This document shows, one piece after another, positions 54,001-57,000 of a stretch of DNA of 64,000 bases. This DNA comes from a virus (taxonomy: Duplodnaviria > Heunggongvirae > Uroviricota > Caudoviricetes). The first letter of the stretch is position 1; every line of letters starts with the position of its first letter. The position numbers are program-made. The DNA is taken from the IMG/VR virus record IMGVR_UViG_2684623127_000002, one strand, 5' to 3'.

Positions 54001-57000
54001 TATTGCTCAGAAGATGGAGTTATCGATGCAGAAACTGGAAGAACTGCGGCAGCGATAGCGCAGGTCGATTGCAATGACGAGATTTATCAGCGCTAGCGTG
54101 GGATAAAAGAGAATCTGAGCAGTCTGGAGAATTTGAAATCGGTTAGGGATTTCATACTAGAATAATAGGATCCGCGGCACGTCGTATGCAAGAACGTGCC
54201 ACGGCTGGCTGGCGAACTTTCGATAGTGCGAGTATTGAATGATTTCCAGCCGTTACCGATTTTACTATGTTTTCAGTAGAACGCTTAGACAAAACTGAGG
54301 CGCACAAAGCTTTGCACTGGATTGCAAGACTTTGTTCTATTCGATAGTTTAAGGTCGCTCACTCTACCTTTTCATCAAGCCAGTCCGCCCACCATTGCAT
54401 CATTTCTCTGCGCTTATCGTGGCAGACGCCTCACTATCACACGGTGATGGTTCATTACTGGTTTGCATAATGGATAGAGAACTGAGGATAAAAGATATCC
54501 CAAAACCCCAAAATCTCATCTTTAGGATTTGCAGAAAGGGAGGCGTAAACAAATACCCGCTCATGAAAACGGAACTAGTCCAGATGTGATGTTTGTGGTT
54601 ATAACATACATCATCAACGATGCTCGTTATGGTGAGTTTGATGACTACCCACTGAAGTGAAAATTGTGTTGTGTACCAAATTGCGTACCAAACTAAAATC
54701 ACAAATCATGAAACACTTGTTCATGGCGGTTCTCAGGGGTGTTGCGCGTAATCGTGAAACAAAAAGGTAGATTGTTGCTTACCGTCATTCATCATTAGGT
54801 TAAATCCGTTGTTTCTGCTGTCTGCCAGAGTATCAAATATCACCGTGCTAATCAGCTTTAGCGCGACAATTTGACAGCGAGTGGCAACAGATCATGTCAG
54901 ATAAAAATGAGAGGGTAGTCACATTTTCTTGCACTTTATTCCAGCCAGTTCATAAGTATTTCCGTAAAAAGAACAGCTATTTGAAACTCCTGAGGGTTTG
55001 CTGTTGAAACGCCGTCTTATTATTGCTGCTTCTTTGTTCATTTTTAACTTATCGTCTGGTTTTGCGGCGGAAAACATTCCTTTTTCACCTCAGCCTCCAG
55101 AGATTCATGCCGGCTCCTGGGTATTGATGGATTACACCACCGGTCAGATCCTCACCGCGGGTAATGAGCATCAACAGCGCAATCCCGCCAGCCTGACAAA
55201 GCTGATGACGGGCTATGTCGTGGATCGCGCTATCGATAGTCATCGCATTACGCCAGACGATATTGTCACCGTGGGGCGCGATGCGTGGGCGAAAGATAAT
55301 CCAGTGTTTGTCGGTTCTTCACTGATGTTTTTGAAAGAGGGCGATCGCGTATCGGTACGTGATTTAAGCCGTGGTTTAATTGTGGATTCCGGAAATGACG
55401 CTTGTGTTGCACTGGCTGACTATATTGCCGGTGGGCAACGGCAGTTTGTTGAAATGATGAACAACTATGCCGAGAAGCTGCATCTCAAGGATACGCATTT
55501 TGAAACAGTGCATGGTCTGGATGCACCAGGTCAGCATAGCTCGGCTTATGATTTAGCTGTGCTTTCTCGCGCTATCATCCACGGCGAGCCCGAGTTTTAT
55601 CATATGTACAGTGAGAAAAGTCTCACCTGGAACGGTATCACCCAGCAAAACCGTAACGGGTTATTGTGGGATAAAACCATGAATGTTGACGGCCTGAAAA
55701 CGGGTCATACTTCTGGTGCCGGGTTTAATCTCATTGCTTCGGCTGTAGATGGGCAGCGTCGTCTCATTGCAGTGGTAATGGGGGCTGACAGTGCAAAAGG
55801 TCGTGAGGAAGAGGCAAGAAAATTACTGCGTTGGGGGCAACAAAACTTTACTACGGTGCAAATTTTGCACCGTGGGAAAAAGGTCGGTACGGAACGCATC
55901 TGGTATGGCGATAAAGAAAATATCGCCCTGGGAACGGAACAAGAGTTCTGGATGGTGCTACCGAAAGCCGAAATTCCACATATCAAAGCCAAATATACCC
56001 TTGATGGTAAAGAGCTCACCGCGCCAATTAGCGCCCATCAGCGGGTAGGGGAAATTGAACTTTACGACCGTGATAAACAGGTGGCGCACTGGCCGCTGGT
56101 TACCCTGGAATCTGTCGGGGAAGGCAGCATGTTTTCTCGCCTGAGTGATTATTTCCACCATAAGGCCTGACCTTTCTTTTGCAGCAGACTGGCAGGAGTG
56201 CGAGTCTGCTCGCATAATCAACACTCATTCCTTGTGGTTTTAATATTGCAACTATACTGTATATAAAAACAGTAATAATGGAGGCGTCATGAACTACGAG
56301 ATTAAGCAGGAAGATAAACGTACCGTTGCAGGTTTCCATCTCGTTGGCCCGTGGGAACAGACGGTAAAGAAAGGTTTTGAGCAGTTGATGATGTGGGTAG
56401 ATAGCAAAAATATTGTGCCGAAGGAGTGGGTTGCTGTCTATTACGACAATCCGGATGAAACACCCGCCGAAAAATTACGCTGCGACACCGTCGTGACGGT
56501 ACCGAATAACTTTACGCTCCCCGAAAACAGTGAGGGCGTCATTCTGACAGAAATTTCAGGTGGTCAATATGCGGTGGCGGTGGCTCGTGTAGTCGGTGAT
56601 GATTTTGCTAAACCCTGGTATCAGTTCTTTAATAGCCTCTTGCAGGACAGTGCTTATGAAATGTTACCAAAGCCCTGCTTCGAGGTTTACTTGAACAATG
56701 GCGCGGAAGATGGGTACTGGGATATCGAAATGTATGTTGCGGTGCAGCCAAAACATCACTAATTCATCTCAGGGCGGTGTGTTGACGCGAAGACCACTCT
56801 TTTTTTGAAAGCGAAAAGAGTAAGATGCGCCTTTCAATTTTTTCGCTCCTGCCGGGAAATTACACTGTTCCCGGTTTGTCCGTCGGATAATTCAGAGGCG
56901 CGCCTTCTGACCGACAGATGTGTTATGAGCGCTTTTAATCTTCATTAACGGAGTTTCTGCGTGCGTGCCAATAAGTCATTAAGCCCGTTTGAAATCCGGG

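Follow-up and report, generated by a model that had tools for sequence, protein, structure and literature searches.

What becomes of a host gene when a phage integrates among its first codons? The question is raised by a 64,000-nucleotide stretch of DNA (IMG/VR record IMGVR_UViG_2684623127_000002; hereafter the window, by which we mean the whole stretch), in which the right end of a Stx2c prophage meets the Escherichia coli chromosome within sbcB, the gene for exonuclease I (ExoI). An earlier note had placed the right attachment junction at about 54.75 kb, in the 5' end of sbcB, and had taken the gene to be left disrupted. The first of these claims stands: the junction is attR, and homology to K-12 starts at 54747. 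The second does not hold at the level of the open reading frame (ORF), because a full-length, in-frame sbcB of 474 residues exists at the opposite prophage end, attL. We consider it very probable that an integrase made attR in sbcB, displacing the native 5' end of the gene, and that a hybrid full-length ExoI was restored at attL from the P' arm of the phage.

Over its first 25 kb the window shows 100% identity to the genome of E. coli O157:H7 strain NE122 (NZ_CP038319.1), and window position x corresponds to position 1,961,638 + x of that record (window position 1 is record position 1,961,639). The left end of the prophage lies outside the window; attL, int, xis and sbcB were read there from this matching public genome. 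At the right end, the following features are found in the window:

1..54759, no strand assigned: right-hand 54.8 kb of the 58.5-kb Stx2c prophage (from identity to NE122 and RefSeq annotation).
54733..54795, minus strand: orphan ORF of 20 codons, 16 from sbcB followed by phage-derived AQHP and a stop (from translation).
54747..54759, no strand assigned: attR copy of the 13-bp att core CGTAATCGTGAAA, the sole stretch identical in attL, attB and attR.
54748..54795, minus strand: displaced native 5' end of sbcB at attR, codons 1-16, MMNDGKQQSTFLFHDY (from translation; 100% identical to the K-12 sbcB 5' end).
54796..55003, no strand assigned: chromosomal sbcB-dacD intergenic region, the native upstream region of sbcB, now apart from the gene body (collinear with the K-12 locus).
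55004..56170, plus strand: dacD, D-Ala-D-Ala carboxypeptidase, the first chromosomal gene to the right of the prophage (from RefSeq annotation of identical genomes and the ORF list).

The minus-strand ORF at 54733..54843 reads ...MMNDGKQQSTFLFHDY, then AQHP and a stop. The minus strand thus encodes the first 16 residues of ExoI and then diverges, exactly as the earlier note had read it, and dacD, which the note had seen as divergent, lies beyond the junction on the plus strand. The RefSeq annotations of NE122 and of another O157:H7 strain, PV15-279, hold no feature at the orphan ORF. The uninterrupted sbcB-dacD locus of K-12 (reference locus L002, with sbcB at 1622..3049, minus strand) matches the window solely from 54747 rightwards, over 299 nucleotides at 98.7% identity (E = 6e-150). 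Among the 5,426 complete E. coli genomes searched, the match to every uninterrupted locus starts at query position 448 (window position 54747), and the same junction is spanned by matches in 486. Alignment to the K-12 locus revealed no further part of sbcB within the 64 kb of the window, and an integrase was looked for in the window and not found. The earlier note had pointed to the other prophage end for both, and there they are: in NE122, int and the rest of sbcB lie 3.8 kb past the window's left edge, where the remainder of the prophage carries xis and a tyrosine integrase gene (record 1,958,085..1,959,263), followed by sbcB at attL.

Where within sbcB did recombination take place? When attL (NE122), attB (K-12) and attR (the window) are aligned, exactly 13 bp, CGTAATCGTGAAA, are common to all of them, and the comparison with an uninterrupted locus thus defines the att core. 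The attL copy lies at 4220..4232 of the NE122 locus L004 (record 1,957,858), 215 bp from the integrase gene, and the attR copy at record 2,016,385; with one core copy counted, the prophage is 58,527 bp long. On the sense strand of sbcB the core reads TTT CAC GAT TAC G and thus covers the codons F13-H14-D15-Y16 plus the opening base of E17. In the DEDD active site of ExoI, Asp15 and Glu17 serve as metal ligands (PMC3675492). For phages 2851 and Sf101 the same 13 bp are the published attP core, and for both of them experimental excision or integration at this site has been reported (PMC4159516); the 13 bp are also an annotated feature in the records of mEp234 and phage 1717.

The phage side of the junction can be followed into free phages. 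A predicted attP of 628 bp, joined from the P arm in the window, the core and the P' arm at attL, is contiguous over 100% of its length, at 94-97% identity, in the free phages mEp234, E212, EC.P3 and Sf101. HK140, HK544 and APC_JM3.2 match the attP in part, from window position ~54592-54597 onward, and a different prophage in strain MSB1_9D begins to match at 54597. By these comparisons, the boundary at ~54592-54597 is the left limit of a shared int-attP module. Two further features can accordingly be laid over the junction:

54597..54746, no strand assigned: phage side of attR, formed by the P arm of the attP module (bounded on the left by the mosaic boundary common to unrelated phages).
54093..54822, no strand assigned: published 'Phage-sbcB right junction' amplicon of primers 2851-82 and sbcB-F, which in silico has the published size of 730 bp (PMC3519850).

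The primers match at 54093..54115 (plus strand, 1 mismatch) and at 54799..54822 (minus strand, exact). That Stx2c phages occupy sbcB in O157:H7 is widely documented (PMC4645166; PMC8309913). In every respect that can be read from sequence, the site is attR of a phage 2851-type prophage in sbcB; it is the well-known attR of the Stx2c prophage in sbcB of E. coli O157:H7, and nothing about the junction itself is new.

What, then, is found at attL? On the sense strand of sbcB, the P' arm beside the attL core reads TAG ACA ATG ACA GAC ACA GAT AAG CAA CCT ACC TTC CTC, then the core, and it provides an ATG and 11 surrogate codons (MTDTDKQPTFL), whose frame is that of the core and the body of sbcB. 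The product starts MTDTDKQPTFLFHDYETFG..., where the native protein starts MMNDGKQQSTFLFHDYETFG.... It has 474 residues, is 98% identical to K-12 ExoI, aligns end to end with crystallised ExoI and scores 814 bits on the NCBIfam ExoI equivalog model (cutoff 260). Both D15 and E17 are kept, and the changed residues are confined to the first ~9 positions, which vary freely among genera. RefSeq annotates the hybrid gene as intact in all four lysogens inspected (NE122, PV15-279, c1-17 and 2018-05-2CC), and in 2018-05-2CC (NZ_AP027877.1) it is so beside a prophage remnant of ~5 kb with a truncated int. The hybrid attL is present in 581 of the 5,426 complete genomes, and the exact hybrid protein on at least 1000 contigs.

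Insertional inactivation would leave no intact target ORF in the lysogen, whereas a 474-residue sbcB stands at attL; what would be expected of ORF-restoring integration is found, namely an in-frame, diverged gene end on attP and a full-length hybrid with its catalytic residues. Read at this level, sbcB is not disrupted. Since a complete hybrid ExoI ORF is present at attL, the 16 codons in the window are to be read as the displaced original 5' end of sbcB and not as the stump of a destroyed gene. The earlier note had itself named two ways in which it might be mistaken, a coincidental match and an intact sbcB elsewhere; the former is contradicted by the E value given above, and the latter is indeed found, but as a hybrid.

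How might integration preserve the frame? Most probably, a tyrosine integrase with an N-terminal arm-binding domain recombined phage attP with chromosomal attB, the crossover falling within CGTAATCGTGAAA and thus over the F13-H14-D15-Y16-E17 codons of the DEDD metal-binding motif. Integration shifted the native upstream region of sbcB, together with its first 16 codons, to attR, and at attL the body of the gene was joined to a P' arm that carries its own ATG and 11 codons, yielding the 474-residue hybrid. Only the first ~9 residues, naturally variable between genera, are replaced, and the catalytic residues remain untouched.

The integrase is consistent with such a scheme. It is 99.7-100% identical to those of phages 2851 and 1717 (99.7% to 2851) and consists of an Arm-DNA-bind_3 domain and a tyrosine recombinase catalytic domain. 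Candidate sites for the former are present in the P arm as two direct repeats of arm type, located by motif search:

54670..54680, plus strand: TGTGTACCAAA, candidate Int arm-binding site.
54682..54692, plus strand: TGCGTACCAAA, candidate Int arm-binding site.

The string GTACCAAA occurs just twice in the 64-kb window, both times in these repeats, and the whole attP holds five copies of TG(T/C)GTACCA(A/G)A in the same orientation, 2 in the P arm and 3 in the P' arm just upstream of int. In the Salmonella phage SEN34 both the position and the 2+3 arrangement of the repeats are kept, but the motif is another one, T(G/A)AGTACAnAA. In an alignment of 19 sequences across genera, the three P' copies hold their position and co-vary within a genome, for example GTACCAAA versus GTACAGAA or GTACATAA. 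Because position and co-variation match the pattern expected of arm-type Int-binding sites, the TGYGTACCARA repeats (2 P, 3 P') are predicted to be the arm sites of Int.

Is the surrogate start a property of the phage, or an accident of one integration? In free phage DNA it adjoins int and is contiguous with the core, and both mEp234 and SEN34 carry, as free phages, an ATG or GTG followed by ~11 codons in frame with the core. The surrogate codons of mEp234 and NE122 have a single difference, which is synonymous (AAA versus AAG). SEN34, whose genome is circular and whose integrase is only 60% identical, carries an identical 13-bp core and its own, different in-frame surrogate, (V/M)TVKNNSVQNTFLFHDYE. 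Beyond these phages, we collected 32 loci with integrase relatives (40-99% identity) from contigs representing one genome per species, and in 26 of them a full-length, divergent sbcB lies ~180 bp from the integrase gene. The genera include Buttiauxella, Erwinia, Pantoea, Serratia, Tatumella, Rosenbergiella, Rahnella, Chimaeribacter, Gilliamella, Orbus, Photobacterium and Parendozoicomonas. At most such loci the Asp codon of sbcB is 209-220 nucleotides from the start of int, and the start codon is ATG, TTG or GTG. The surrogate start is a phage feature and not an accident.

Not every integrase relative targets sbcB. At the other six of the 32 loci there is no sbcB within 2.5 kb, and Klebsiella phage ST340-VIM1phi10.1 (integrase 61% identical) has no sbcB-like surrogate; its int adjoins an 'intracellular protease' gene, which may reflect a shifted target specificity within the integrase family. 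In the same phage, the motif TTTCGTAATC stands right at the start of the 'intracellular protease' gene (468..480 of locus L046). Shigella flexneri SFBU1023 (L040) and E. coli ECMA0423 (L041) each carry a truncated int (first 107 residues) beside an sbcB with a phage-type N terminus and apparent frameshifts, which could be real decay; their very low apparent identity suggests error-rich assemblies, and we did not count them as cases of sbcB decay.

Does the hybrid gene function? With the native upstream region left behind at 54796..55003, the hybrid can be expressed only from the 181-bp phage-derived spacer at attL, and we infer that it is transcribed from there and that its product is functional. 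Several points weigh against so favorable a view. A strict scan of the spacer for sigma-70 promoters and terminators found neither, and a relaxed sigma-70 scan gave weak candidates only, such as TGGACA-19-TATATT 89 nucleotides upstream. No evident Shine-Dalgarno sequence precedes the surrogate ATG. The ORF could have stayed intact simply because the prophages are young, and not through selection. Outside Escherichia and Salmonella, the 'surrogate' is predicted from conserved geometry rather than from comparison with unoccupied loci. Finally, the IHF consensus WATCAANNNNTTR is absent from the attP region of mEp234.

The rival reading is insertional inactivation, in which sbcB is cut off from its promoter and start and the lysogen is effectively sbcB-null despite the ORF at attL. 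The native upstream region and the first 16 codons have indeed been moved 58.5 kb away, the strict scan yields no consensus promoter in the spacer, and the site is loosely termed a 'disruption' in the literature (PMC8309913). Yet the relaxed-scan candidates in the spacer are no worse than those of the native sbcB upstream region, which offers equally weak sigma-70-like matches only, and the native ATG likewise lacks an evident Shine-Dalgarno sequence. Against inactivation stands a complete, in-frame ORF of 474 residues with its own ATG at attL. If the surrogate start were purposeless, its presence on free phages and its retention in a phage whose integrase is only 60% identical would be hard to explain; the solely synonymous difference between mEp234 and NE122, the full-length sbcB beside the integrase family in 26 of 32 loci across genera, and the hybrid ORF that is intact even next to a decayed prophage remnant speak in the same direction. 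We therefore regard inactivation as unlikely and restoration of a hybrid ExoI at attL as the better account.

A more far-reaching variant of restoration is conceivable, although we think it improbable. The int-attP module might constitute a cross-genus cassette that swaps the promoter and N terminus of sbcB, placing host ExoI under phage-derived control. In this case, sbcB of the lysogen would rely on the 181-bp phage spacer, where the divergent int promoter and three arm sites for Int would also lie, and upon induction, leftward transcription from pL would pass xis, cross int in antisense and enter sbcB in sense orientation. If so, this phage family would not merely preserve the gene but tune a host exonuclease for single-stranded DNA that affects recombination.

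Conversely, might the fragment left at attR have a function of its own? The native sbcB promoter could drive synthesis of the 20-residue peptide MMNDGKQQSTFLFHDYAQHP or read leftward toward nleG7. The geometry would permit it: on the minus strand, the native upstream region (54796..55003) is directed into the prophage, nleG7 (53030..53680) lies on the same strand ~1 kb downstream, and two weak terminator-like hairpins are all that is found in between. However, the tail of the peptide is arbitrary phage sequence, and the native sbcB promoter is itself weak or undefined. Moreover, left of ~54597 the cargo of phages with this attP module is unrelated, and any coupling to nleG7 would therefore be accidental and not designed. 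A function of the fragment is thus very unlikely. That the junction is a chance similarity or an assembly artefact can be dismissed as practically negligible, for although the coding match alone is short (48 nucleotides), similarity runs on for 299 nucleotides and more through the intergenic region and dacD, the junction recurs in the 486 complete genomes, a reciprocal attL exists, and the junction is a published target of the polymerase chain reaction with a product of the correct size.

The junction belongs to a lambdoid prophage of 58.5 kb, Stx2c-converting and of the phage 2851 type. RefSeq annotates lambdoid exo, bet and gam, a repressor region, replication genes, the antiterminator Q and lysis, head and tail genes. 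Downstream of Q, transfer RNA genes for Ile, Arg and Arg stand directly upstream of stx2A (20237..21196) and stx2c-B (21208..21477), the whole spanning 19901..21477, and an iraM-like anti-adapter gene follows just past stx on the minus strand (~21774..22097). Two copies of the insertion sequence IS1203 (IS629 family) lie at 1221..2434 and 9202..10415, and the second splits cII into fragments at ~9035..9184 and 10465..10644, such that the establishment of lysogeny after transfer may be impaired in this copy. The gene for minor tail protein L is annotated in two partial pieces (42047..42413 and 42492..42773) and the portal gene as frameshifted (32908..35492). Together with the interrupted cII, these lesions suggest that the prophage may be defective for virion production.

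Between this body and the attP module lies the right-end cargo, an ORF of 291 residues (51930..52805, plus strand) and nleG7 (53030..53680, minus strand). The former is annotated as a hypothetical protein and has no Pfam or NCBIfam match; phage 2851 is reported to carry an OspB-like type III effector, which this ORF may be. The product of nleG7 matches Pfam T3SS_NleG (E = 5e-48), and the gene is intact in the window and has an internal stop in PV15-279. The ~0.9 kb from nleG7 to the attP module (53700..54600) hold no annotated gene, and the short ORFs there have no Pfam or NCBIfam match. A candidate for the Shigella small RNA CssrB at 54130..54203 (plus strand) was rejected as probably due to chance (Rfam 26 bits against a gathering score of 76; 53600..55100 searched). 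On the chromosomal side, dacD is followed by sbmC, yeeA and tmaR and then by a CP4-44-like island (59600..64000) with a frameshifted cbtA toxin gene (~59609..59982), the cbeA antitoxin gene (~60071..60439), yeeT, yeeS and an antirestriction gene.

Other prophages occupy the same site. Strain PV15-279 (NZ_AP018488.1, O157:H7) has the same sbcB site, core and integrase and an identical right junction, but its prophage is Stx1a-converting and is not collinear further left, and we rejected this genome as a match for the whole window. The int-attP module is thus, as judged from these genomes, common to phages with different toxin genes. In 2018-05-2CC, the remnant between hybrid sbcB and dacD (6448..10403 of locus L008) carries a truncated integrase gene with genes for a glycosyltransferase and a bactoprenol glucosyl transferase (O-antigen modification), and looks like a decayed serotype-converting prophage.

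What follows for the use of this site? In the epidemiology of O157:H7 the junction serves routinely as a marker: whether an Stx2c phage occupies sbcB is used in SBI genotyping and separates bovine-biased lineages. Finding the junction here assigns the window to an stx2c-positive O157:H7 strain. The gene should be called occupied rather than destroyed, as the lysogen retains a complete ExoI reading frame with a phage-supplied start. It follows that, for these strains, sbcB should be counted as a pseudogene or as having lost its function only where expression data call for it. More generally, the combination of an integrase, a core over the DEDD codons and a surrogate start, kept across genera, indicates that the phage targets an invariant coding motif and appears to limit the cost to its host.

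How does this arrangement compare with known systems? With attP of the lambda type it shares a tyrosine integrase with an N-terminal arm-binding domain and a short core flanked by direct repeats, 2 P and 3 P', which co-vary with integrase lineage and are here candidate sites. It differs in its integrase, which is of the Arm-DNA-bind_3 (P4-like) group and has a gene divergent from xis, and in that no IHF consensus was found. A closer precedent is the ORF-restoring integration of phage 21 and e14 into icd, reportedly described by Hill et al. in 1989 and by Campbell in 1992 and 2003. There as here, the gene end that is displaced has a diverged, in-frame counterpart on attP, the hybrid is full-length and the original end is orphaned at the other junction. 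Phage 21 and e14, however, replace the 3' end of icd, which keeps its native promoter and start, whereas here the 5' end of sbcB is replaced; because its start, N terminus and any promoter are phage-derived, continued expression is less certain than for icd.

Among phages of this site, Sf101 (serotype-converting, from Shigella flexneri), mEp234, HK140 and HK544 ('attP type 2851') share the int-attP module at 94-98% identity, as a contiguous P arm, core, surrogate sbcB 5' end and int, while the rest of their genomes and their cargo are unrelated (oacB, no stx), and they are known as free virion genomes rather than as an integrated copy as in the window. Closest of all are the Stx2c phage 2851 (FM180578) and phage 1717, whose integration in sbcB was reportedly described by Strauch et al. 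in 2008. They have the same 13-bp core, an integrase 99.7-100% identical, a P' arm 100% identical, and the same target gene, stx2c cargo and O157:H7 host, and the junction is that of SBI genotyping. Relative to phage 2851, the NE122 copy has two IS1203/IS629 insertions elsewhere, one splitting cII, and a split tail gene L, and the junction does not differ. To this known junction, the correction concerning disruption and the cross-genus conservation of the module of integrase, core and surrogate start are modest additions.

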